64,000 nucleotides of DNA from Escherichia coli (GTDB lineage: Bacteria; Pseudomonadota; Gammaproteobacteria; Enterobacterales; Enterobacteriaceae). Positions 4,400 to 43,952 of this stretch are shown here, one piece after another. Positions within the stretch are counted from its first letter, which is position 1. Every line of letters starts with the position of its first letter. The DNA lies in assembly GCF_044647545.1 (NCBI RefSeq), contig NZ_CP172818.1; one strand, written 5' to 3'. The notes under the pieces are model-generated. The model did not search any database. It had not been told where the DNA came from and saw nothing but the letters and a program-made list of their open reading frames with translations. Made by a program: the position numbers and the translations under genes.

Positions 4400-5773
4400 G
4401 TGACCGCTTTTTCTACCCTGAATGTTTTGCCTCCCGCCCAACTCACGAACCTTAATGAGTTGGGTTATTTAACTATGACGCCGGTGCAGGCTGCCGCGCT
4501 TCCGGCGATCCTTGCCGGAAAAGATGTTCGCGTGCAGGCGAAAACCGGCAGCGGCAAAACGGCGGCTTTTGGCCTCGGCTTGTTACAGCAAATTGATGCG
4601 TCGCTATTTCAAACCCAGGCTTTAGTGCTGTGTCCTACGCGTGAACTGGCGGATCAGGTGGCAGGTGAATTGCGTCGGCTGGCGCGTTTTCTGCCAAATA
4701 CCAAAATTTTGACGTTGTGCGGTGGTCAACCGTTCGGTATGCAGCGTGATTCGTTGCAACATGCGCCGCATATTATCGTGGCAACGCCGGGCCGTTTGCT
4801 GGATCACTTGCAAAAAGGCACGGTATCACTGGATGCGCTGAATACTTTGGTGATGGATGAGGCCGACCGCATGCTGGATATGGGATTTAGCGATGCCATT
4901 GATGATGTCATCCGTTTTGCGCCTGCATCTCGACAGACGCTTCTGTTTTCGGCAACCTGGCCGGAAGCCATCGCCGCAATCAGCGGAAGAGTGCAGCGCG
5001 ATCCTTTAGCGATTGAAATTGACTCAACAGATGCTCTGCCACCTATTGAACAACAATTTTATGAGACATCCAGCAAAGGCAAAATTCCGTTGTTGCAACG
5101 GTTATTAAGTTTGCATCAGCCATCCTCTTGCGTGGTGTTTTGCAATACCAAAAAAGATTGCCAGGCTGTCTGCGACGCGCTGAATGAAGTAGAGCAAAGT
5201 GCATTGTCGTTACACGGCGATCTGGAGCAACGTGATCGCGATCAGACCCTGGTACGTTTTGCTAACGGTAGCGCCCGTGTACTGGTTGCGACTGATGTTG
5301 CTGCGCGTGGTCTGGATATTAAATCGCTTGAGCTGGTGGTGAACTTTGAGCTGGCGTGGGACCCTGAAGTTCATGTACATCGCATCGGCCGTACAGCGCG
5401 TGCAGGAAATAGCGGTCTGGCGATCAGTTTCTGTGCCCCGGAAGAAGCACAGCGGGCCAATATCATTTCTGACATGTTGCAGATAAAACTTAACTGGCAA
5501 ACGCCGCCAGTTAATAGTTCCATTGTGCCGCTGGAAGCAGAAATGGCAACGTTATGTATCGATGGCGGGAAAAAAGCCAAAATGCGCCCGGGTGATGTAT
5601 TAGGTGCGCTGACAGGAGACATCGGGCTTGATGGCGCAGATATTGGCAAAATCGCCGTGCATCCGGCGCATGTCTATGTCGCGGTGCGTCAGGCTGTTGC
5701 TCATAAAGCATGGAAACAGTTACAGGGCGGGAAGATTAAAGGAAAAACGTGCCGGGTGCGGTTATTAAAATAA
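4400..5773 (+). CDS. dbpA: DEAD-box ATP-dependent RNA helicase DbpA
   Basis: 457 aa; GTG start; Walker A AKTGSGKT, DEAD box (VMDEAD), SAT motif. Confidence 0.92.
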   Translation: MTAFSTLNVLPPAQLTNLNELGYLTMTPVQAAALPAILAGKDVRVQAKTGSGKTAAFGLGLLQQIDASLFQTQALVLCPTRELADQVAGELRRLARFLPNTKILTLCGGQPFGMQRDSLQHAPHIIVATPGRLLDHLQKGTVSLDALNTLVMDEADRMLDMGFSDAIDDVIRFAPASRQTLLFSATWPEAIAAISGRVQRDPLAIEIDSTDALPPIEQQFYETSSKGKIPLLQRLLSLHQPSSCVVFCNTKKDCQAVCDALNEVEQSALSLHGDLEQRDRDQTLVRFANGSARVLVATDVAARGLDIKSLELVVNFELAWDPEVHVHRIGRTARAGNSGLAISFCAPEEAQRANIISDMLQIKLNWQTPPVNSSIVPLEAEMATLCIDGGKKAKMRPGDVLGALTGDIGLDGADIGKIAVHPAHVYVAVRQAVAHKAWKQLQGGKIKGKTCRVRLLK

Positions 5774-20302: not shown

Positions 20303-20566
20303 ATGAGCGAGAAATTAAAGATAGTCTATCGCCCATTACAAGAATTGTCACCGTATGCGCACAACGCCAGGACGCACAGTACTGAGCAGGTGGCACAACT
20401 GGTAGAAAGTATTAAGCAATTCGGCTGGACTAATCCGGTGCTGATTGACGAAAAGGGCGAAATTATTGCGGGTCACGGTCGTGTTATGGCGGCTGAAATG
20501 CTCAAAATGGATTCTGTTCCGGTCATTGTTCTGTCTGGCCTGACGGATGAGCAGAAGCAGCGATAA
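20303..20566 (+). CDS. ynaK: ParB-like nuclease-domain fragment protein YnaK
   Basis: 87 aa with ParB N-terminal-like motif (GHGRVMAA). Confidence 0.75.
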   Translation: MSEKLKIVYRPLQELSPYAHNARTHSTEQVAQLVESIKQFGWTNPVLIDEKGEIIAGHGRVMAAEMLKMDSVPVIVLSGLTDEQKQR

Positions 20567-20906
20567 CGATCAGTATCGCTCCCGTAATGCATTAATCCGT
20601 CGCCACATTGAGAAAATGGATGCCAGTTTGCACGTCGGAACGAAGGAGTTTGATATTTCAAAGGTTTCCGAGGTGGATTCTGTTGATGATTTACTCATTG
20701 ATAATGCCGCTCGTTATCTGCTGAAAGACTGGAAAGGGGTTGGTGAACTGGTTAATGGTGTTGAGGTTGCACTGGAATATACGGCAGAACGAGGGATCGC
20801 GCTGCTTAAGCAGAATCCAGAGTTGTACTGGCAGATCCTTGCAGAAGCAGCCAGCATCGCCCAGGGTAAAGAGCAGCAGAAGCAGGATACGATAAAAAAG
20901 CCATAG
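20547..20906 (+). pseudogene. ydaY: Prophage gene remnant YdaY
   Basis: 119-aa ORF overlapping ynaK end; no recognisable complete domain. Confidence 0.5.
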
Positions 20907-20980
20907 CTGCCCAGCGGTGGTTATCGGAGTTCGGGGGAGAAAGGGGGGAAAAGGCAAGATGGAAGCGAGAAAAACTCAGG

Positions 20981-21214
20981 TTGCCACCGATACCGGAACC
21001 AGAAATAGACCCGGTGCTTAAGGAGTTGTTGTACGCCTATTCGGTAATATCCCGTGCCCGACGTTATGCTGGAATGGCTGGGGTGCCTTTGCCTTTATCT
21101 CTGACAGAGATAAATGAATATTTAGCCACTCATCCGGTATTGATTGAGCGCGATGAATTTGAAGCAGTGATCTTTGCACTGGATGACCAGTATTTTCAGG
21201 AGCAGTGTGTGTAG
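20981..21214 (+). CDS. Phage-related small ORF, possible tail-assembly fragment (uncertain)
   Basis: 77-aa ORF immediately upstream of tape-measure fragment. Confidence 0.3.
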   Translation: MPPIPEPEIDPVLKELLYAYSVISRARRYAGMAGVPLPLSLTEINEYLATHPVLIERDEFEAVIFALDDQYFQEQCV

Positions 21215-21379
21215 TTGTTAATTACGTACACTCTGTTACAGAGATGTGATGGTGTCTTTAATTAAATCGATGATGCTCCTGGAGAAAAGCATTGCGTGGC
21301 CTCGTAATCGCTATATCTACTATTATGTCGCCTGAAACCCACTTCGCGGTGGGTTTTTTGTTGTCAGGAGTTTTAATAA

Positions 21380-22408
21380 ATGGCAGAGCAAACCTCGCGT
21401 CTCGCAATAATTATTGATAGCACTGGAGCGAAAAATAATGCTGACAATCTGACCTCCTCATTAGTCAAAATGACGCAGGCTGGGGAAACTGCTGCAAATA
21501 GCGCAGGGAAAGTGACTAAGGCAACAGAAGATGAGAAGAACGCGCTCGCAAAATTAAAAGCAGCTATTGATCCAGTTGGTGCCGCAATTGATACTGTCGG
21601 TCGACGCTATTCTGAATTAAAGAAATTTTTCGATAAAGGGCTTATTGATAAAGAAGAATATGAATTTCTTGTCCGTAAACTTAATGAAACCACAGAGGAA
21701 TTGAGCGGGGTTGCGCAAGCGCAGAGAGAAGCCGAGAAGGCCGGAAAACTTGCTGCCGCTCAGCAGGAAGCGCAGGCTCAGGCCTTTCAAAGAATGCTGG
21801 ACAAGATCGACCCTCTGGCTGCGGCGCTAAGAAATCTTGAACAACAGCATGATGAACTTAATGCTGCGTTTGCATCCGGGAAAATAAATGGTTCTCAGTT
21901 TGAGAATTATAGCCGAAAAATACAGGAAACACGGCGAGAGCTTACCGGAGAGGCTCAGGCAGAGCGAGAAGCAGCAAAAGCGCATGATGAACAGGTTGTT
22001 GCTTTGCAACGTCTGATTGCTCAACTTGATCCTGTCGGAACTGCTTTTAATCGTCTGGTAGAACAACAGAAACAGCTCAATGAAGCAAAAGCTAAGGGGA
22101 TGCTTTCTCCTGAAATGTATGAGGAGCTTTCTGGAAAACTTCGTGCTATGCGGAGTGAGCTTGAGGTTACTCAATCACAATTAAGCAAAACCGGAATGTC
22201 GGCAAAACAAACGGCTTTTGCTATGCGCATGTTGCCTGCACAAATGACGGATATTGTTGTTGGGTTGTCCACTGGTCAGTCGCCATTTATGGTGTTAATG
22301 CAGCAGGGCGGCCATTCAGCTATGCAGGAGACAAGAATCGCCAGCTTACCCGTTACAGCGATACCCGCTGGCATGAAGATTCAGTGCGTAACCGCTGGTT
22401 CAGCATGA
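21380..22408 (+). pseudogene. tmpR: Tail tape-measure protein, N-terminal fragment
   Basis: 342-aa coiled-coil-rich ORF typical of tape-measure N-termini; far too short for a full TMP. Confidence 0.7.
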
Positions 22409-23720: not shown

Positions 23721-23910
23721 CAAGGGGAAAACGCACGATGTGCTGACCGGAAGTGATGACGATCGCCACAGCAACACGTCTCTGGCGTGGGGAGCTGGCG
23801 TGCAGTTTAACCCGACCGAATCCGTGGCCATTGACATTGCTTATGAAGGCTCCGGCAGTGGCGACTGGCGCACTGACGGTTTCATCGTGGGTGTCGGTTA
23901 TAAATTCTGA
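23721..23910 (+). pseudogene. lomR: Lom-family outer membrane protein, C-terminal fragment
   Basis: Ends with OMP beta-barrel signature ...GFIVGVGYKF; resumes after IS5. Confidence 0.7.
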
Positions 23911-23974
23911 TTAGCCAGGTAACACAGTGTTATGACAGCCCGCCGGTTCAGGCGGGCTTTTTTGTGGAGTGGAT

Positions 23975-26900
23975 ATGGCAGCAGTAAAAATCTCAGGTGT
24001 GCTGAAAGATGGTGCGGGAAAACCAATACAGAACTGCACTATTCAACTGAGGGCAAAGCGTAACAGCACCACGGTACTGGTGAACACGGTGGCCTCTGAA
24101 AATCCGGATGAAGCCGGGCGTTACAGCATGGATGTTGAGTATGGCCAGTACAGCGTCACCCTGCTGGTTGAAGGTTTTCCGCCTTCACATGCCGGAACCA
24201 TTACCGTCTATGAAGGTTCCAGACCAGGTACGCTGAATGATTTTCTCGGTGCCATGACGGAAGATGATGTCATGCCGGAGGCATTGCGTCGTTTTGAGGC
24301 AATGGTGGAAGAAGCGGCACGCAACGCGTCCGCGGTGGCACAGAACACGGCAGCCGCGAAGAAGTCAGCCAGTGATGCCAGCACATCAGCCCGTGAGGCG
24401 GCAACCCATGCGGCTGATGCTGCGGACTCAGCACGCGCAGCCAGCACGTCAGCCGGACAGGCCGCGTCGTCGGCTCAGTCAGCGTCTTCCAGCGCAGGAA
24501 CGGCATCAACAAAGGCCACTGAAGCATCAAAAAGTGCTGCCGCTGCAGAGTCCTCAAAAAGCGCGGCGGCCACCAGTGCCGGTGCGGCGAAAACGTCAGA
24601 AACGAATGCTTCAGCGTCACTACAATCAGCAGCCACATCTGCATCCACCGCGACCACGAAGGCATCAGAAGCTGCGACCTCGGCCCGGGATGCGGCGGCC
24701 TCAAAAGAAGCGGCAAAATCATCAGAAACGAACGCATCATCAAGCGCCAGTAGTGCAGCTTCCTCGGCAACGGCGGCAGGAAATTCCGCGAAGGCGGCAA
24801 AAACGTCCGAGACGAACGCCAGGTCTTCTGAAACGGCAGCGGGACAGAGCGCCTCGGCTGCGGCAGGCTCAAAAACAGCGGCTGCGTCGTCTGCCAGTGC
24901 AGCGTCAACAAGTGCCGGGCAGGCCTCAGCCAGTGCCACCGCCGCCGGAAAATCGGCAGAAAGCGCCGCATCGTCTGCTTCAACAGCCACAACGAAGGCT
25001 GGCGAAGCCACTGAACAGGCCAGCGCAGCAGCGAGGTCTGCTTCCGCAGCGAAGACATCCGAAACGAACGCGAAAGCGTCGGAAACAAGCGCAGAATCCT
25101 CAAAAACGGCTGCCGCATCGTCAGCCAGTTCGGCGGCGTCATCGGCATCATCGGCGTCTGCTTCAAAAGATGAGGCGACCAGACAAGCGTCAGCAGCGAA
25201 GAGCAGCGCCACGACGGCATCCACGAAGGCGACAGAGGCTGCTGGCAGTGCGACGGCGGCAGCTCAGAGCAAAAGTACGGCGGAATCCGCGGCAACGCGC
25301 GCCGAGACAGCAGCTAAACGGGCAGAGGATATTGCATCCGCCGTGGCGCTTGAGGATGCAAGTACGACGAAAAAGGGGATAGTACAGCTCAGCAGTGCGA
25401 CCAACAGTACGTCTGAAACGCTGGCGGCAACGCCAAAGGCAGTAAAATCAGCCTATGACAATGCAGAGAAACGTCTGCAGAAAGACCAGAACGGCGCTGA
25501 TATACCCGATAAGGGATGCTTCCTGAACAACATTAACGCGGTCAGTAAAACAGACTTTGCTGATAAGCGTGGTATGCGTTATGTGCGGGTTAACGCTCCT
25601 GCAGGTGCAACATCTGGAAAATATTACCCTGTTGTTGTTATGCGTTCTGCTGGCTCAGTAAGCGAACTGGCATCAAGAGTCATTATCACCACGGCAACGC
25701 GAACCGCAGGCGATCCGATGAATAACTGCGAGTTTAACGGATTTGTTATGCCTGGTGGCTGGACTGACAGGGGGCGTTATGCTTATGGCATGTTCTGGCA
25801 ATATCAAAACAATGAACGAGCCATTCACTCAATAATGATGAGTAATAAGGGCGATGATTTGCGCTCTGTGTTCTATGTTGATGGCGCTGCTTTCCCTGTT
25901 TTTGCGTTTATTGAAGATGGCCTGTCAATATCCGCACCTGGTGCTGATCTCGTTGTTAATGATACGACCTATAAGTTTGGGGCAACAAATCCGGCGACTG
26001 AATGTATCGCGGCGGACGTTATCCTTGATTTTAAGAGTGGGCGTGGTTTTTATGAGTCTCATTCGTTAATCGTTAACGATAACTTGTCGTGCAAAAAACT
26101 TTTTGCCACAGACGAAATTGTAGCGCGTGGTGGTAATCAGATTCGAATGATAGGTGGGGAGTATGGTGCATTATGGCGTAATGATGGCGCTAAAACTTAC
26201 CTGCTGCTTACCAATCAAGGTGATGTTTATGGTGGCTGGAATACATTAAGACCGTTTGCTATTGATAACGCAACCGGCGAACTGGTTATTGGAACCAAAC
26301 TGTCCGCAAGTCTGAACGGTAATGCATTAACAGCAACAAAGCTGCAAACGCCAAGACGGGTTTCTGGTGTTGAGTTTGATGGTTCCAAAGATATTACTTT
26401 AACCGCCGCGCATGTGGCTGCTTTTGCCAGAAGGGCAACGGATACATATGCCGATGCGGATGGTGGCGTTCCATGGAATGCCGAATCTGGCGCTTACAAT
26501 GTCACCCGCTCTGGCGACAGCTATATTCTGGTTAACTTCTATACCGGAGTCGGAAGTTGCCGGACCCTGCAGATGAAGGCGCATTACAGAAATGGTGGTC
26601 TGTTCTACCGTTCTTCAAGAGACGGTTATGGTTTTGAGGAAGACTGGGCAGAAGTTTATACCTCGAAAAATCTTCCACCAGAAAGCTACCCAGTCGGCGC
26701 ACCAATCCCGTGGCCATCAGATACGCCACCTGCAGGTTATGCAATCATGCAGGGGCAGACGTTTGATAAGGCAGCATATCCGAAACTGGCTATTGCCTAT
26801 CCTTCTGGTGTTATTCCAGATATGCGCGGCTGGACAATCAAGGGCAAACCCGCCAGTGGTCGGGCCGTATTGTCTCAGGAACAGGATGGCATTAAATCGC

Positions 26901-36774: not shown

Positions 36775-37764
36775 TTAAACCAGTTCGTTCGGGCAGGTTT
36801 CGCCTTTTTCCAGATTGCTTAAGTTTTGCAGCGTAGTCTGAGAAATACTGGTCAGAGCTTCTGCTGTCAGGAATGCCTGATGCCCGGTAAACAGCACGTT
36901 GTGGCAGGCAGACAGGCGACGGAATACGTCATCCTGAATTACGTCGTTGGATTTATCTTCAAAGAAAAGATCGCGTTCGTTCTCATACACGTCCATACCC
37001 AACGAACCAATTTTCTGATTTTTCAGCGCTTCAATTGCTGCCTGAGAATCAATCAATGCACCGCGACTGGTATTGACGATCATCACGCCATTTTTCATCT
37101 GTTCGAAGGCAGCTTCGTTCAACAGATGATAGTTTTCCGGTGTCAGCGGGCAGTGCAGAGAGATAACGTCTGATTCAGAGAACAGGGTTGGCAGATCGAC
37201 ATACTCCACACCGAGTTCCAGTGCCGCCGCACTTGGATACGGATCGAACGCCAGCAGACGCATACCAAAACCTTTCAGAATGCGCAGCATCGCCACACCG
37301 ATTTTGCCGGTACCGATAACGCCTGCCGTTTTGCCATACATAGTAAAGCCGGTCAGACCTTCCAGAGAGAAGTTGGCGTCACGGGTACGCTGATACGCGC
37401 GGTGAATACGGCGGTTCAGCGTCATCATCATACCGATGGCATGTTCAGCAACGGCTTCTGGATCATAGGCTGGAACACGGACTACTTTCAGCCCCAGTTC
37501 TTTTGCCGCGTCAAGGTCGACGTTATTGAAACCGGCACAGCGCAGGGCGATATATTTAACGCCGTGCTTTTTCAGCTCTTCCAGCACCGGGCGGCTGCCG
37601 TCATCGTTTACGAAAATACATACCGCTTCGCAGCCATTGGCAGTTTTAGCGGTTTTTTCCGTCAGCAGAAAGTCAAAAAATTCCAGCTCAAAGCCAAAGG
37701 ACTCGTTCACCTGTTGCAGGTACTTCTTGTCGTACTGTTTTGTGCTATAAACGGCGAGTTTCAT
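36775..37764 (-). CDS. ldhA: Fermentative D-lactate dehydrogenase
   Basis: 329 aa; NAD-binding GVIGTGKIG. Confidence 0.93.
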   Translation of the reverse strand: MKLAVYSTKQYDKKYLQQVNESFGFELEFFDFLLTEKTAKTANGCEAVCIFVNDDGSRPVLEELKKHGVKYIALRCAGFNNVDLDAAKELGLKVVRVPAYDPEAVAEHAIGMMMTLNRRIHRAYQRTRDANFSLEGLTGFTMYGKTAGVIGTGKIGVAMLRILKGFGMRLLAFDPYPSAAALELGVEYVDLPTLFSESDVISLHCPLTPENYHLLNEAAFEQMKNGVMIVNTSRGALIDSQAAIEALKNQKIGSLGMDVYENERDLFFEDKSNDVIQDDVFRRLSACHNVLFTGHQAFLTAEALTSISQTTLQNLSNLEKGETCPNELV

Positions 37765-37971
37765 AAGACTTTCTCCAGTGATGTTGAATCACATTTAAGC
37801 TACTAAAAATATTTTACAAAATTTCAAATATAATTGAAAGCTATGGCGATATTGAAAAATTCATCAACAACTATGCTTAGTGTAGGCGCAACCTTCAACT
37901 GAACGGTTAAACATGCCACAATACCCGTATTGAATGCTTAATTTTTCGCTAAATCAGGATATTAACTACCC

Positions 37972-40611
37972 ATGCTGGGTAAATATAAAGCCGTTCTCGC
38001 GCTGTTATTACTGATTATTCTTGTGCCGTTGACGCTGCTGATGACGCTCGGGCTGTGGGTTCCTACGCTGGCGGGCATCTGGCTACCGCTCGGGACACGT
38101 ATTGCATTAGATGAAAGCCCACGCATTACGCGTAAAGGTTTAATCATTCCCGATCTCCGTTATCTGGTGGGAGATTGTCAGCTTGCGCATATCACCAACG
38201 CCAGCCTTTCACATCCCAGCCGCTGGTTATTGAACGTCGGCACGGTAGAACTTGATTCTGCTTGTCTGGCGAAATTGCCGCAGACGGAGCAATCGCCAGC
38301 CGCTCCAAAAACCCTCGCGCAGTGGCAGGCCATGTTGCCTAACACCTGGATCAATATCGATAAACTGATTTTTTCTCCCTGGCAGGAATGGCAGGGAAAA
38401 CTCTCTCTCGCATTAACCTCCGATATCCAGCAACTGCGTTATCAGGGCGAAAAAGTTAAATTTCAAGGCCAGCTGAAAGGGCAACAACTTACAGTCAGCG
38501 AACTGGATGTCGTCGCGTTTGAAAATCAGCCGCCGGTTAAACTGGTGGGGGAATTTACTATGCCGCTCGTGCCGGATGGACTTCCGGTAAGTGGGCATGC
38601 TACTGCGACGTTAAACTTGCCGCAGGAACCGTCACTGGTGGATGCAGAGCTGGACTGGCAGGAAAATAGCGGGCAATTGATCGTGCTGGCACGGGATAAC
38701 GGCGATCCGTTGCTCGATTTGCCGTGGCAAATTACTCGTCAACAATTGACCGTAAGCGATGGTCGCTGGAGCTGGCCGTATGCAGGTTTTCCTTTGAGTG
38801 GCCGACTGGGTGTCAAAGTCGACAACTGGCAGGCAGGGCTCGAGAACGCTCTGGTCAGCGGACGACTGAGTGTGCTGACCCAGGGGCAAGCGGGTAAGGG
38901 CAACGCGGTGCTTAATTTTGGCCCTGGAAAATTAAGCATGGATAACAGCCAGCTGCCTATGCAGCTGACCGGTGAAGCGAAACAGGCGGATCTCATTTTA
39001 TACGCCCGCTTACCTGCGCAGCTAAGCGGAAGTCTGACTGACCCAACGCTGGCCTTTGAGCCAGGCGCGTTATTACGTTCGAAGGGAAGAGTCATCGATT
39101 CGCTGGACATCGATGAAATCCGCTGGCCTTTAGCGGGTGTAAAAGTCACCCAACGTGGTGTTGACGGACGTTTGCAGGCCATTTTGCAGGCGCATGAAAA
39201 TGAACTGGGCGATTTCGTGCTGCATATGGATGGACTGGCGAATGATTTTCTCCCTGACGCTGGCCGCTGGCAGTGGCGCTACTGGGGAAAAGGCAGTTTT
39301 ACACCGATGAATGCCACCTGGGATGTCGCAGGAAAGGGTGAGTGGCATGACAGCACGATTACGCTGACCGATCTCTCCACCGGTTTCGACCAGTTACAAT
39401 ACGGTACGATGACGGTTGAAAAGCCGCGACTAATTCTCGACAAGCCCGTCGTCTGGGTACGTGACGCACAGCATCCCTCCTTTAGCGGCGCGCTGTCACT
39501 GGACGCCGGGCAAACGCTGTTCACTGGCGGCAGTGTGTTACCGCCATCAACCTTAAAATTTAGCGTCGATGGACGCGATCCGACGTATTTCCTCTTTAAA
39601 GGCGATTTACATGCTGGTGAGATTGGCCCGGTTCGGGTAAATGGTCGCTGGGACGGTATTCGTCTGCGCGGTAACGCCTGGTGGCCTAAACAATCACTGA
39701 CCGTATTCCAGCCGCTGGTGCCACCCGACTGGAAGATGAACTTACGCGATGGCGAACTATATGCCCAGGTCGCATTTTCTGCTGCGCCTGAACAAGGATT
39801 CCGCGCGGGAGGGCACGGTGTGTTGAAAGGCGGTAGTGCCTGGATGCCAGATAATCAGGTTAACGGTGTCGATTTTGTCCTGCCTTTCCGTTTTGCCGAT
39901 GGAGCCTGGCATCTGGGGACTCGCGGCCCCGTTACGTTGCGAATTGCCGAAGTGATTAATCTGGTGACAGCGAAAAATATTACGGCTGATTTGCAAGGTC
40001 GTTATCCGTGGACTGAAGAAGAACCATTGCTGTTGACTGATGTTAGCGTTGATGTGTTAGGCGGTAACGTACTGATGAAACAATTACGTATGCCGCAACA
40101 TGACCCGGCGCTGTTGCGGCTGAATAATCTTTCCTCCAGCGAACTGGTTAGCGCCGTCAATCCGAAACAATTCGCCATGTCCGGGGCATTTAGTGGTGCA
40201 TTGCCGTTATGGCTAAACAACGAAAAATGGATAGTGAAAGATGGTTGGCTGGCAAATAGCGGGCCAATGACCTTGCGGCTGGATAAAGACACCGCAGATG
40301 CGGTGGTGAAAGACAATATGACTGCGGGTTCAGCAATTAACTGGTTGCGCTATATGGAAATTAGCCGTTCATCGACAAAAATTAATTTAGATAATCTCGG
40401 TTTATTAACCATGCAGGCCAACATTACAGGTACCAGTCGCGTTGATGGTAAAAGCGGTACGGTAAATCTTAATTACCATCATGAAGAGAATATTTTTACG
40501 CTGTGGCGCAGTTTACGCTTTGGCGATAATCTCCAGGCATGGTTGGAGCAGAACGCACGTCTGCCGGGAAATGACTGTCCGCAAGGAAAAGAGTGTGAGG
40601 AAAAACAATGA
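37972..40611 (+). CDS. ydbH: AsmA-like large envelope protein YdbH
   Basis: 879 aa; N-terminal TM helix. Confidence 0.9.
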   Translation: MLGKYKAVLALLLLIILVPLTLLMTLGLWVPTLAGIWLPLGTRIALDESPRITRKGLIIPDLRYLVGDCQLAHITNASLSHPSRWLLNVGTVELDSACLAKLPQTEQSPAAPKTLAQWQAMLPNTWINIDKLIFSPWQEWQGKLSLALTSDIQQLRYQGEKVKFQGQLKGQQLTVSELDVVAFENQPPVKLVGEFTMPLVPDGLPVSGHATATLNLPQEPSLVDAELDWQENSGQLIVLARDNGDPLLDLPWQITRQQLTVSDGRWSWPYAGFPLSGRLGVKVDNWQAGLENALVSGRLSVLTQGQAGKGNAVLNFGPGKLSMDNSQLPMQLTGEAKQADLILYARLPAQLSGSLTDPTLAFEPGALLRSKGRVIDSLDIDEIRWPLAGVKVTQRGVDGRLQAILQAHENELGDFVLHMDGLANDFLPDAGRWQWRYWGKGSFTPMNATWDVAGKGEWHDSTITLTDLSTGFDQLQYGTMTVEKPRLILDKPVVWVRDAQHPSFSGALSLDAGQTLFTGGSVLPPSTLKFSVDGRDPTYFLFKGDLHAGEIGPVRVNGRWDGIRLRGNAWWPKQSLTVFQPLVPPDWKMNLRDGELYAQVAFSAAPEQGFRAGGHGVLKGGSAWMPDNQVNGVDFVLPFRFADGAWHLGTRGPVTLRIAEVINLVTAKNITADLQGRYPWTEEEPLLLTDVSVDVLGGNVLMKQLRMPQHDPALLRLNNLSSSELVSAVNPKQFAMSGAFSGALPLWLNNEKWIVKDGWLANSGPMTLRLDKDTADAVVKDNMTAGSAINWLRYMEISRSSTKINLDNLGLLTMQANITGTSRVDGKSGTVNLNYHHEENIFTLWRSLRFGDNLQAWLEQNARLPGNDCPQGKECEEKQ

Positions 40612-40793
40612 AAATTTTACTGGCTGCGTTGACGTCATCTTTTATGCTGGTTGGCTGTACGCCTCGCATTGAAGTCGCTGCCCCTAAGGAACCGATCACT
40701 ATCAATATGAACGTTAAAATTGAGCATGAGATCATCATCAAGGCAGACAAAGATGTCGAAGAGCTGCTTGAAACTCGTAGCGATCTTTTCTGA
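40608..40793 (+). CDS. ynbE: Small lipoprotein YnbE
   Basis: 61 aa; lipobox LVGC; ATG overlaps ydbH stop (ATGA). Confidence 0.8.
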   Translation: MKILLAALTSSFMLVGCTPRIEVAAPKEPITINMNVKIEHEIIIKADKDVEELLETRSDLF

Positions 40794-40800
40794 GGCGATG

Positions 40801-41127
40801 ATGAAGAAAACATTACTTCTTTGTGCGTTTCTTGTTGGGCTGGTAAGCAGCAATGTAATGGCATTGACTCTGGATGAAGCCAGAACTCAGGGGCGGGTAG
40901 GTGAAACATTTTATGGTTATCTGGTTGCGCTGAAAACAGATGCTGAAACAGAGAAATTAGTAAACGACATTAATGCCGAACGTAAAGCGAGTTACCAACA
41001 ACTGGCAAAGCAAAATAATGTGTCGGTAGATGATATCGCGAAACTCGCCGGGCAAAAGCTCGTAGCTCGGGCCAAACCGGGGGAATATGTACAAGGGATA
41101 AACGGTAAATGGGTGCGAAAATTTTAA
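40801..41127 (+). CDS. ydbL: Periplasmic protein YdbL
   Basis: 108 aa with signal peptide (MKKTLLLCAFLVGLVSSNVMA). Confidence 0.8.
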   Translation: MKKTLLLCAFLVGLVSSNVMALTLDEARTQGRVGETFYGYLVALKTDAETEKLVNDINAERKASYQQLAKQNNVSVDDIAKLAGQKLVARAKPGEYVQGINGKWVRKF

Positions 41128-41297
41128 TAGCAAAACCGCACTATCGGGATAACGCTACAGGAGAAGGCGATTAATCTATTTTCCGGAAACAAGATGATTA
41201 TTCAAAAACTCCTGTCAAATTGCCTTTCGCCCTGAAAATGAATAGTCAAATATCTGTTTTAACTAATTAGCGTTGCTGTACATGCAACGCTAATTAG

Positions 41298-42203
41298 TTA
41301 GCGGAATTTACGTCGATACTCGCCTGGCGTCATCCCAAAGCGTTGCTTAAATACCGTTGAAAAATGACTCTGGTCGGAAAATCCCCAATGAAAGCCAATG
41401 CCTGCCAGTTTTTCATCATCTGCGGCATGGCGAATCGCATCTGCACAAAAATCGAGACGACGGTTACGGATATATTGCGCGACTACCAAACCTTTATCGG
41501 CAAACATTCGGTACAAACTACGTACTGACATACCTGTCTCTCCGGCTATCCACTCCGGGCGTAATATCTCTTCGCGAATATTATCGTCTATCAACGTAAC
41601 CACTTTTTGAAACTGACGTTCACGACGAGGTTGAACAGATTCCCGCTGATGAAGTACCGGGCGCAGCAGACACACCATCGCCTGTAGCGCAGCTTCACTT
41701 TCTGTTTCAGAAAGTGCCGGATTATTCATGCTCTCCTGTAACAGGCGATGACTGAGTTGCACCATGGGTAAGTCAGCGTCCAGTCTTTCTGCGCAGATAG
41801 GTTTTTGATGGGGAAAATATTGTTCCAGCAGAGTGCGTGGCAAAAGTAATGAAATCTGTTTAGAAGACTCCTGCCAGTAAAGCGAACAGGGGCGTGAGGC
41901 ATCGAGTAACGTAATATCGCCAGCGCCAATCTGCACCTGACGCTCATCCTGCTCCATTATTGCCTGACCACTAAGCTGAAAAACGGTGTAAAACCAGGCA
42001 TCGTCGCTGCCTTTTACTTCCTGCCAGGTGCGGGATAAATTCACCCCGCTGGTTGTCACGGTACTCAGCTTTAGTCCTTTGGCAAAATGCGTGTCCAGTA
42101 CACCCGTGTAACGCTCAGTCAGCAGGCGTCCGGTAAAATTTCCGCATACCTGATTGATTTGGGAAAGCCATTGCTGAAACTCATTATCCACTGCGGGGTT
42201 CAT
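41298..42203 (-). CDS. feaR: AraC-family activator FeaR
   Basis: 301 aa; C-terminal AraC HTH; divergent from feaB. Confidence 0.9.
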   Translation of the reverse strand: MNPAVDNEFQQWLSQINQVCGNFTGRLLTERYTGVLDTHFAKGLKLSTVTTSGVNLSRTWQEVKGSDDAWFYTVFQLSGQAIMEQDERQVQIGAGDITLLDASRPCSLYWQESSKQISLLLPRTLLEQYFPHQKPICAERLDADLPMVQLSHRLLQESMNNPALSETESEAALQAMVCLLRPVLHQRESVQPRRERQFQKVVTLIDDNIREEILRPEWIAGETGMSVRSLYRMFADKGLVVAQYIRNRRLDFCADAIRHAADDEKLAGIGFHWGFSDQSHFSTVFKQRFGMTPGEYRRKFR

Positions 42204-42435: not shown

Positions 42436-43932
42436 GTGATGACAGAGCCGCATGTAGCAGTATTAAGCCAGGTCCAACAGTTTCTCGATCGTCAACACGG
42501 TCTTTATATTGATGGTCGTCCTGGCCCCGCACAAAGTGAAAAACGGTTGGCGATCTTTGATCCGGCCACCGGGCAAGAAATTGCGTCTACTGCTGATGCC
42601 AACGAAGCGGATGTAGATAACGCAGTCATGTCTGCCTGGCGGGCCTTTGTCTCGCGTCGCTGGGCCGGGCGATTACCCGCAGAGCGTGAACGTATTCTGC
42701 TACGTTTTGCTGATCTGGTGGAGCAGCACAGTGAGGAGCTGGCGCAACTGGAAACCCTGGAGCAAGGCAAGTCAATTGCCATTTCCCGTGCTTTTGAAGT
42801 GGGCTGTACGCTGAACTGGATGCGTTATACCGCCGGGTTAACGACCAAAATCGCGGGTAAAACGCTGGACTTGTCGATTCCCTTACCCCAGGGGGCGCGT
42901 TATCAGGCCTGGACGCGTAAAGAGCCGGTTGGCGTAGTGGCGGGAATTGTGCCATGGAACTTTCCGTTGATGATTGGTATGTGGAAGGTGATGCCAGCAC
43001 TGGCAGCAGGCTGTTCAATCGTGATTAAGCCTTCGGAAACCACGCCACTGACGATGTTGCGCGTGGCGGAACTGGCCAGCGAGGCTGGTATCCCTGATGG
43101 CGTTTTTAATGTCGTCACCGGGTCAGGTGCTGTATGCGGCGCGGCCCTGACGTCACATCCTCATGTTGCGAAAATCAGTTTTACCGGTTCAACCGCGACG
43201 GGAAAAGGTATTGCCAGAACTGCTGCTGATCACTTAACGCGTGTAACGCTGGAACTGGGCGGTAAAAACCCGGCAATTGTATTAAAAGATGCTGATCCGC
43301 AATGGGTTATTGAAGGCTTGATGACCGGAAGCTTCCTGAATCAAGGGCAAGTATGCGCCGCCAGTTCGCGAATTTATATTGAAGCGCCGTTGTTTGACAC
43401 GCTGGTTAGTGGATTTGAGCAGGCGGTAAAATCGTTGCAAGTGGGACCGGGGATGTCACCTGTTGCACAGATTAACCCTTTGGTTTCTCGTGCGCACTGC
43501 GACAAAGTGTGTTCATTCCTCGACGATGCGCAGGCACAGCAAGCAGAGCTGATTCGCGGGTCGAATGGACCACCAGAGGTATTATGTTGCGCCAACGCTA
43601 GTGCGGTAAAATCCCGATGCTAAATTGCGCTTAACTCGTGAAGAGGTGTTTGGTCCGGTGGTAAACCTGGTGCGAGTAAGCGGTGGAAGAGGCGTTACAA
43701 CTGGCAAACGACACGGAATATGGCTTAACTGCCAGTGTCTGGACGCAAAATCTCTCCAGGCTCTGGAATATAGCGATCGCTTACAGGCAGGGACGGTGTG
43801 GGTAAACAGCCATACCTTGATTGACGCTAACTACCGTTTGGTGGGATGAAGCAGTCAGGAACGGGCCGTGATTTTGGCCCCGACTGGCTGGACGGTTGGT
43901 GTGAAACTAAGTCGGTGTGTGTACGGTATTAA
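42436..43932 (+). pseudogene. feaB: Phenylacetaldehyde dehydrogenase, 3' part frame-disrupted here
   Basis: Aldehyde dehydrogenase ORF stops at 43623 (395 aa); homologous sequence continues in another frame (43625..43849). Confidence 0.75.
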
Positions 43933-43952
43933 TATTGGTTCGCTAATTAAGT

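Follow-up and report, generated by a model that had tools for sequence, protein, structure and literature searches.

The genes ydbH, ynbE and ydbL follow one another at positions 37972-41127 of a 64,000-nucleotide (nt) stretch of Escherichia coli DNA (contig NZ_CP172818.1; the whole stretch is hereafter called the window, and its positions serve as coordinates). We consider it highly probable that these three genes constitute one transcription unit for the YdbH-YnbE intermembrane bridge and its modulator YdbL, with coupled expression. The overlap, the coupling and the three-part machine are already published for this very locus; the observation is correct but ordinary and adds nothing to the publications, which cite the same ATGA. 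We read the window sequence from 40400 to 41300 directly, together with a listing of open reading frames (ORFs) and their translations, and the features on which the argument relies are as follows:

37972-40611, plus strand: ydbH, 879 amino acids (aa), AsmA-like protein for intermembrane phospholipid transport, hydrophobic anchor at the N-terminus (PF11739, NF007971, RefSeq annotation)
40597-40600, plus strand: GAGG Shine-Dalgarno (SD) motif for ynbE, inside ydbH and 7 nt upstream of the ynbE ATG
40608-40611, plus strand: ATGA, 4-nt overlap of the ydbH stop and the ynbE start, termination-reinitiation site, identical in K-12
40608-40793, plus strand: ynbE, 61 aa, outer-membrane (OM) lipoprotein (PF13617, translation)
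40791-40795, plus strand: UGAGG, ynbE stop fused to the ydbL SD; the GAGG (40792-40795) starts within the stop codon, 5 nt before the ATG at 40801
40801-41127, plus strand: ydbL, 108 aa, periplasmic chaperone-like modulator of YnbE (DUF1318); the RefSeq start is the second ATG

The 3' end of ydbH reads ...GAG GAA AAA CAA TGA, with the stop codon at 40609-40611, and the ynbE start codon (40608-40610) is built from the A before this TGA plus its T and G. The window sequence thus confirms the ATGA overlap noticed in a preliminary description of this DNA. The two genes run in the same direction with a -4-nt overlap and an SD within the upstream gene, as in a termination-reinitiation pair. At the second junction, the ynbE stop (TGA, 40791-40793) is followed by GGCG ATG ATG AAG. 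The preliminary description had placed ydbL 8 bp after ynbE; the tight spacing holds, and the spacer to the RefSeq-annotated ATG at 40801 is itself 7 nt (40794-40800), this ATG lying 8 positions past the last base of the stop. An alternative in-frame ATG at 40798 would leave a spacer of 4 nt; the 108-aa form of YdbL agrees with the residue numbering of the literature and with PDB chain 28oj_A (residues 22-108). Since 820 same-direction E. coli pairs lie at -8 to +10 nt, bare spacing is commonplace (PMC10666635), and the K-12 paa operon, collinear with the window, holds several 1-nt and 4-nt gene overlaps. Judged from the sequences compared below, the spacing at the ydbH-ynbE-ydbL locus is conserved far beyond chance, though tight spacing as such is common.

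The K-12 operon is the same locus, and the differences from it are strain-level polymorphism only. Compared to K-12 MG1655, YdbH has 5 aa differences, YnbE is identical and YdbL carries one substitution (A55N). The region from -99 to +30 around the ydbH/ynbE junction, which is the fragment tested for coupling in K-12 (PMC6728339, PMC10666635), differs by 1 nt, the ATGA and the SD themselves being identical, and one base differs in the ynbE-ydbL spacer. Window positions 37800-41300 are 100% identical in several complete E. coli chromosomes and present in 5409/5426 genomes, and DNA identical to the window is annotated in RefSeq as ydbH, ynbE and ydbL.

Direct evidence for coupling comes from Huber et al. 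2019, whose five native E. coli pairs included ydbH/ynbE. In their reporter constructs, an early stop of ydbH translation left ynbE translation 'extremely low or undetectable', and the SD was 'strictly essential for reinitiation' (PMC6728339). Added distance between the two genes led to a steep drop in reinitiation (Huber et al. 2023, PMC10666635). Reinitiation at the ATGA thus means that ynbE is translated only when ydbH is translated, as shown for K-12. The E. coli pairs hyfH/hyfI and astD/astB are built in the same way as ydbH/ynbE: the genes overlap (-4 nt or -1 nt), the SD lies inside the upstream gene, and the downstream gene depends for its translation on that of the upstream gene. The strict need for the SD sets ydbH/ynbE apart, since its removal in other coupled pairs cut reinitiation by 60-90% (PMC6728339). 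Among gene pairs at -8 to +10 nt, subunits of complexes show a 4.5-fold enrichment (30.4% vs 6.8%; PMC10666635).

The three translations match the assigned families well above the cut-offs. YdbH scored 970.5 bits against Pfam PF11739 (cut-off 26.3, residues 14-862) and 1399.6 bits against the NCBIfam equivalog NF007971 (cut-off 824), and its translation opens with a hydrophobic N-terminus, AVLALLLLIILVPLTLLMTLGLWVPTLAGIWL. The literature assigns to the protein, after its N-terminal membrane anchor, a periplasmic AsmA-like fold with a repeating beta-groove (PMC11126948); a look-up in the structure database returned no solved structure of YdbH. YnbE scored 59.3 bits against PF13617 (cut-off 25.8). 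Its signal peptide covers residues 1-16 (MKILLAALTSSFM-LVGC-T), with the lipobox L-V-G-C at 40647-40658 and the lipidation cysteine at Cys17; a Cys stands in the same register in all distant YnbE homologues. Position +2 is Thr18 and not Asp, which by sequence predicts sorting to the OM, and the OM localisation itself is from the literature. The C-terminal helix of YnbE ends in ...DLF. YdbL scored 108.7 bits against PF07027 (DUF1318; cut-off 27) and matched PDB 28oj_A, 'Probable chaperone-like protein YdbL', over residues 22-108 (E = 6e-52). Its signal peptide spans residues 1-21 and ends in VMA|L. Reading the 108-aa translation directly, we found all the functional or YnbE-binding residues listed in bioRxiv 10.64898/2026.03.16.712125, namely E35, Y40, N58, I79, K86, L87, R90, W104 and K107.

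Joint action of these proteins has direct published support in K-12. YdbH function requires YnbE (Kumar, Davis and Ruiz 2024, PMC11126948), and the same requirement was observed in Pseudomonas aeruginosa (PMC12447247). YnbE multimerises and cross-links to the C-terminus of YdbH (PMC11126948). The inner-membrane (IM) protein YdbH and the OM lipoprotein YnbE make a functional intermembrane bridge, which periplasmic YdbL modulates (PMC11126948; bioRxiv 10.64898/2026.03.16.712125). YdbL is dispensable, yet its excess is lethal in a yhdP tamB mutant (PMC11126948). The structure of YdbL was solved by De'Ath et al. 2026, who showed by mapping that it binds the helix at the YnbE C-terminus and reported that excess YdbL is toxic and that free YdbL is degraded by DegP (bioRxiv 10.64898/2026.03.16.712125). 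Kumar et al. explicitly cited the ATGA overlap and raised a possible coupling of ynbE and ydbL (PMC11126948).

These publications support the proposal, made at first from the sequence, of an envelope lipid-transport machine composed of YdbH, a small lipoprotein and a periplasmic partner (PMC11126948; bioRxiv 10.64898/2026.03.16.712125), and co-purification or cross-linking in published work was already positive for the physical association of YdbH and YnbE. The accompanying phrase 'stoichiometric co-expression' fared less well. Strict coupling of ydbH and ynbE is established (PMC6728339), but 'stoichiometric' goes beyond the data: the ratio matters, and 1:1:1 is not what is shown. 'Ratio-controlled' is the better wording because YnbE multimerises and YdbL is a dispensable modulator that is harmful in excess.

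In the mechanism that we propose, ribosomes ending ydbH at the UGA (40609-40611) would reinitiate at the overlapping AUG (40608), aided by the GAGG 7 nt upstream. Translation of ydbL would be tied to that of ynbE by reinitiation, or set by a fixed weak-to-moderate initiation site, a step that we infer. YdbH would be anchored in the IM with its repeating beta-groove, and YnbE, lipidated on Cys17 and sorted to the OM, would lengthen this groove, probably as a multimer, through beta-strand augmentation. YdbL, exported via its Sec signal peptide, would bind the C-terminal helix of YnbE and restrain runaway multimerisation of YnbE. The fixed gene order and spacing would hold YdbL's ratio to YdbH/YnbE in a safe range, and this ratio needs holding, since too much YdbL inactivates the bridge. 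The function proposed for the bridge, with indirect support, is to let phospholipids flow through it, redundantly with YhdP and TamB.

To follow the junctions across species, species-representative genomes were scanned with an alignment of the YdbH C-terminal region, and the 80 closest loci listed were all from Enterobacteriaceae. The Enterobacteriaceae set comprises 79 sequences with all three genes (the window and 78 loci). Distant loci were sampled one by one and are few: 11 outside Enterobacteriaceae, from about 55% down to about 26% identity to the YdbH C-terminal query. Within the Enterobacteriaceae set, the ydbH/ynbE junction was ATGA in 64/79 sequences and TAATG in 14/79, with a +2-nt gap in the remaining one (1/79), and [AG]AGG lay within 16 nt upstream of the ynbE start in 77/79. 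The second junction was still more constant, the ynbE stop and its next two bases reading TGAGG in 79/79. For the ydbL ATG, 74 sequences had position +7, 4 had +10 and 1 had +8, while the extra ATG at +4, as seen in the window at 40798, was present in only 24/79.

Further away, ATGA was again found between ydbH and ynbE in Proteus, Xenorhabdus and loci L089, L095 and L096, and ynbE followed ydbH directly in all 11 distant loci (gene calls -17 to +19 nt apart). In the distant loci that have ydbL, the spacer before it was looser, at 9-33 nt, and the sequence joining the ynbE stop to the ydbL SD was TAAGG in Xenorhabdus and TGAGGAG in L093. On one metagenome contig (L082:399-1412), the YdbH C-terminal region and YnbE were called as a single 337-aa ORF (PF11739 and PF13617), with ydbL 9 nt further on; this ORF may be either a natural in-frame fusion or the result of an assembly or frameshift error.

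Several points weigh against our reading. The YdbH-YnbE complex is described as of 'unknown stoichiometry' (bioRxiv 10.64898/2026.03.16.712125), and phospholipid transport by the bridge is a proposed function with indirect support (PMC11126948). The fold of the -99 to +30 region at ydbH/ynbE was not unusually stable (minimum free energy -27.5 kcal/mol, z = +1.48), and this measure thus lends no support to the local structure that was proposed as a block to de novo initiation. The other points concern ydbL. Its coupling to ynbE is a suggestion only in publications (PMC11126948), its initiation region was predicted to be unpaired in a consensus fold of 32 Enterobacteriaceae sequences, without covariation, which makes independent initiation possible, and E. 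coli pairs near +10 nt, where there is a peak, are regarded as 'more likely' to be independently initiated (PMC10666635).

These last points lead to the explanation that competes best, to which we give somewhat less than an even chance: ydbL would be uncoupled from ynbE and initiated de novo at its own GAGG-N5-AUG, the YdbL level being set by SD strength and DegP proteolysis. Its SD and spacing are canonical, the spacing drifts to 9-33 nt in distant lineages, and the degradation of free YdbL by DegP (bioRxiv 10.64898/2026.03.16.712125) would provide the second control. However, the ydbL SD begins within the ynbE stop in 79/79 Enterobacteriaceae, the stop always being TGA, so that a terminating ribosome necessarily occupies the ydbL SD. 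In addition, a distance of -8 to +10 nt is taken to predict reinitiation (PMC10666635), and a C-terminal FLAG on ynbE lowered the apparent function of YdbL, for which the authors suggested a disturbed coupling (PMC11126948). We lean towards reinitiation at ydbL as well, the invariant UGAGG being expected to put the terminating ribosome on the ydbL SD and to favour a hand-over.

An RNA structure masking the ydbL start was also considered and rejected. In E. coli, AUCAUCAUC (ynbE Ile codons) can pair with GAUGAUGA (ydbL start), and this fold was no more stable than shuffles (z = +0.68). The pairing is limited to E. coli, other genera having CAU-AUC codons and different spacers. In a search of 37600-41500 for Rfam families, none was found, with two chance-level matches only.

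For transcription, one more feature is needed:

37765-37971, plus strand: ldhA-ydbH divergent intergenic region, presumed location of the operon promoter

A sigma-70 consensus scan of this region gave no match. The divergent ldhA is also the upstream neighbour of ydbH in Proteus and Xenorhabdus. Promoter-like matches were at chance level (4 vs 4.6 expected from shuffles), and as the counts of both the promoter and the terminator scans equal the shuffled expectation, these scans are uninformative. The terminator scan called no plus-strand site within or between ydbH, ynbE and ydbL, and the gaps between the genes are too small to house signals. We presume that the three genes form one transcription unit, co-transcription being stated in the literature and the promoter location being presumed. 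It is very unlikely that a promoter inside ydbH drives ynbE and ydbL independently of ydbH. One plus-strand promoter-like match lies within ydbH at 40100-40128, but it scores 9/12, and such matches equal the shuffled expectation in number; the three genes are treated as co-transcribed (PMC11126948; bioRxiv 10.64898/2026.03.16.712125), and even if transcribed separately, ynbE was untranslated without upstream translation in the reporter assays (PMC6728339). Hardly any credence is due to the view that genome compaction, or drift of start and stop codons, produced the overlap and the short spacer as a side effect with no regulatory role, and that co-transcription alone gives co-expression. In its favour, no spacings are commoner in prokaryotic operons than overlaps of 4 nt and 1 nt, about 70% of the tight pairs in E. 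coli encode no known complex (PMC10666635) and the paa operon has several such overlaps, but this explanation is largely refuted already by the loss of ynbE reporter translation on an early ydbH stop or SD removal (PMC6728339), by its fall with added distance (PMC10666635), and by junctions that are kept across Enterobacteriaceae, with ATGA recurring in Proteus, Xenorhabdus and the three distant loci named above.

The distant loci also provide a comparison of bridges with and without the modulator. We observed that ydbL is absent from six distant ydbH-ynbE loci (L088, L090, L091, L092, L094 and L095). The space after ynbE in these six held no plus-strand ORF of at least 60 aa, with one exception in L090, which starts about 250 nt downstream of ynbE, in a place where the gene is called on the other strand. 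All loci with ydbL have a YnbE ending in ...[L/I]F (the 79 Enterobacteriaceae sequences, Proteus, Xenorhabdus, L093 and L096; window 40746-40790). In the six distant loci without ydbL, this ending is missing and unrelated charged tails are found instead. In an Enterobacter locus that lacks ydbL (L080, ynbE 4900-5088), YnbE ends in ...DLL, the final Phe being replaced by Leu. This tracking of ydbL presence with the [L/I]F tail, in which the 6 distant loci without ydbL are set against 5 distant loci and 79 Enterobacteriaceae sequences with it, is consistent with the published interface between YdbL and the C-terminal helix of YnbE.

In five of the six distant loci without ydbL, a gene for a polytopic membrane protein of about 270 aa lies immediately upstream of ydbH and ends -1 to +31 nt from the ydbH start. 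The protein is recorded as Pfam PF27206 'HI_1241', uncharacterised, with a mutual identity of only 22-56%, and its named relatives are Pasteurellaceae hypothetical proteins. We found no homologue of HI_1241 in the window, nor among the 80 enterobacterial loci. We tentatively suggest, while holding it rather doubtful, that ydbL is a lineage-variable accessory co-evolving with the YnbE tail, that HI_1241 could be an unrecognised IM partner of the YdbH bridge, and that UGAGG may fix the YdbL:YnbE ratio; this accessory-module reading concerns DNA outside the window, and the loci behind it are few.

How phospholipids are delivered to the Gram-negative OM has been asked for a long time, and three redundant bridges are candidates, YdbH-YnbE among them. 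Like YdbH, TamB-TamA (TAM) and YhdP, the other AsmA-like candidates for phospholipid transport, are IM-anchored repeating beta-groove proteins reaching the OM and functionally redundant with YdbH. TamB resembles YdbH further in needing an OM partner from the same operon; this partner is an Omp85 beta-barrel for TamB, whereas it is a 45-residue lipoprotein for YdbH. A YdbL-like modulator is not known for either TamB-TamA or YhdP. In P. aeruginosa, YdbH (PA5307) is very divergent, with about 24% identity reported, and is accompanied by YnbE (PA5306) (PMC12447247). The GC-rich distant loci L093 and L096 keep the ydbH-ynbE-ydbL order and a YnbE ending in ...LF as in the window, with looser spacings (+12/+11 nt in L093 and -4/+33 nt in L096). 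The comparative data are of modest value in three respects: they offer a sequence-level rationale for keeping a YdbL that is harmful in excess in ratio, a phylogenetic test of the interaction of YdbL with the YnbE tail, and a candidate IM partner in Pasteurellaceae-type loci.

Within E. coli, ydbL (40801-41127) is strongly dimorphic: 493 genomes carry it at 60-80% DNA identity to the window, and 145 genomes carry mosaics at 80-90%. In O157:H7 (L085:4008-4331), YdbL has 71% protein identity to the window, with 98% for YdbH and 90% for YnbE, and I79, K86, L87 and R90 of YdbL are retained in this allele. M00057 (L086:4008-4331) was a further ydbL locus in this comparison of E. coli alleles. In strain ET650, an IS1 insertion truncates ydbL.

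The gene borders a recombining variable region, and the content downstream of it differs among strains. The window (41298-42203 onward) and K-12 have feaR-feaB-tynA-paa downstream of ydbL. In FDAARGOS_497 and CFSAN061771, a deletion downstream of ydbL joins a feaR remnant to a paaX remnant, and an autotransporter gene lies downstream of ydbL in O157:H7. Between ydbL and feaR we observed one structured element:

41260-41300, no strand assigned: hairpin of 17 perfectly paired bp around a 7-nt loop, in the gap between the convergent genes ydbL and feaR, its 3' arm overlapping the feaR stop codon

This hairpin dominates the centroid structure (region z = -4.05). Neither strand shows a U-tract, and the terminator scan did not call the hairpin; we regard it as a candidate bidirectional transcript end.

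The feaB gene of the window is disrupted, with an ORF of 395 aa (42436-43623) compared to 499 aa in K-12. Across the region 42436-43935 there are 14 gap positions, clustered between nt 1135 and 1400 of K-12 feaB, and the gene may be a pseudogene, or else the sequence may be poor in this patch. Finally, positions 1-29733 of the window are not collinear with FDAARGOS_497, where matches are limited to two short segments (20555-22314 and 23721-24327) and where a lambdoid-type prophage and sitABCD are present.

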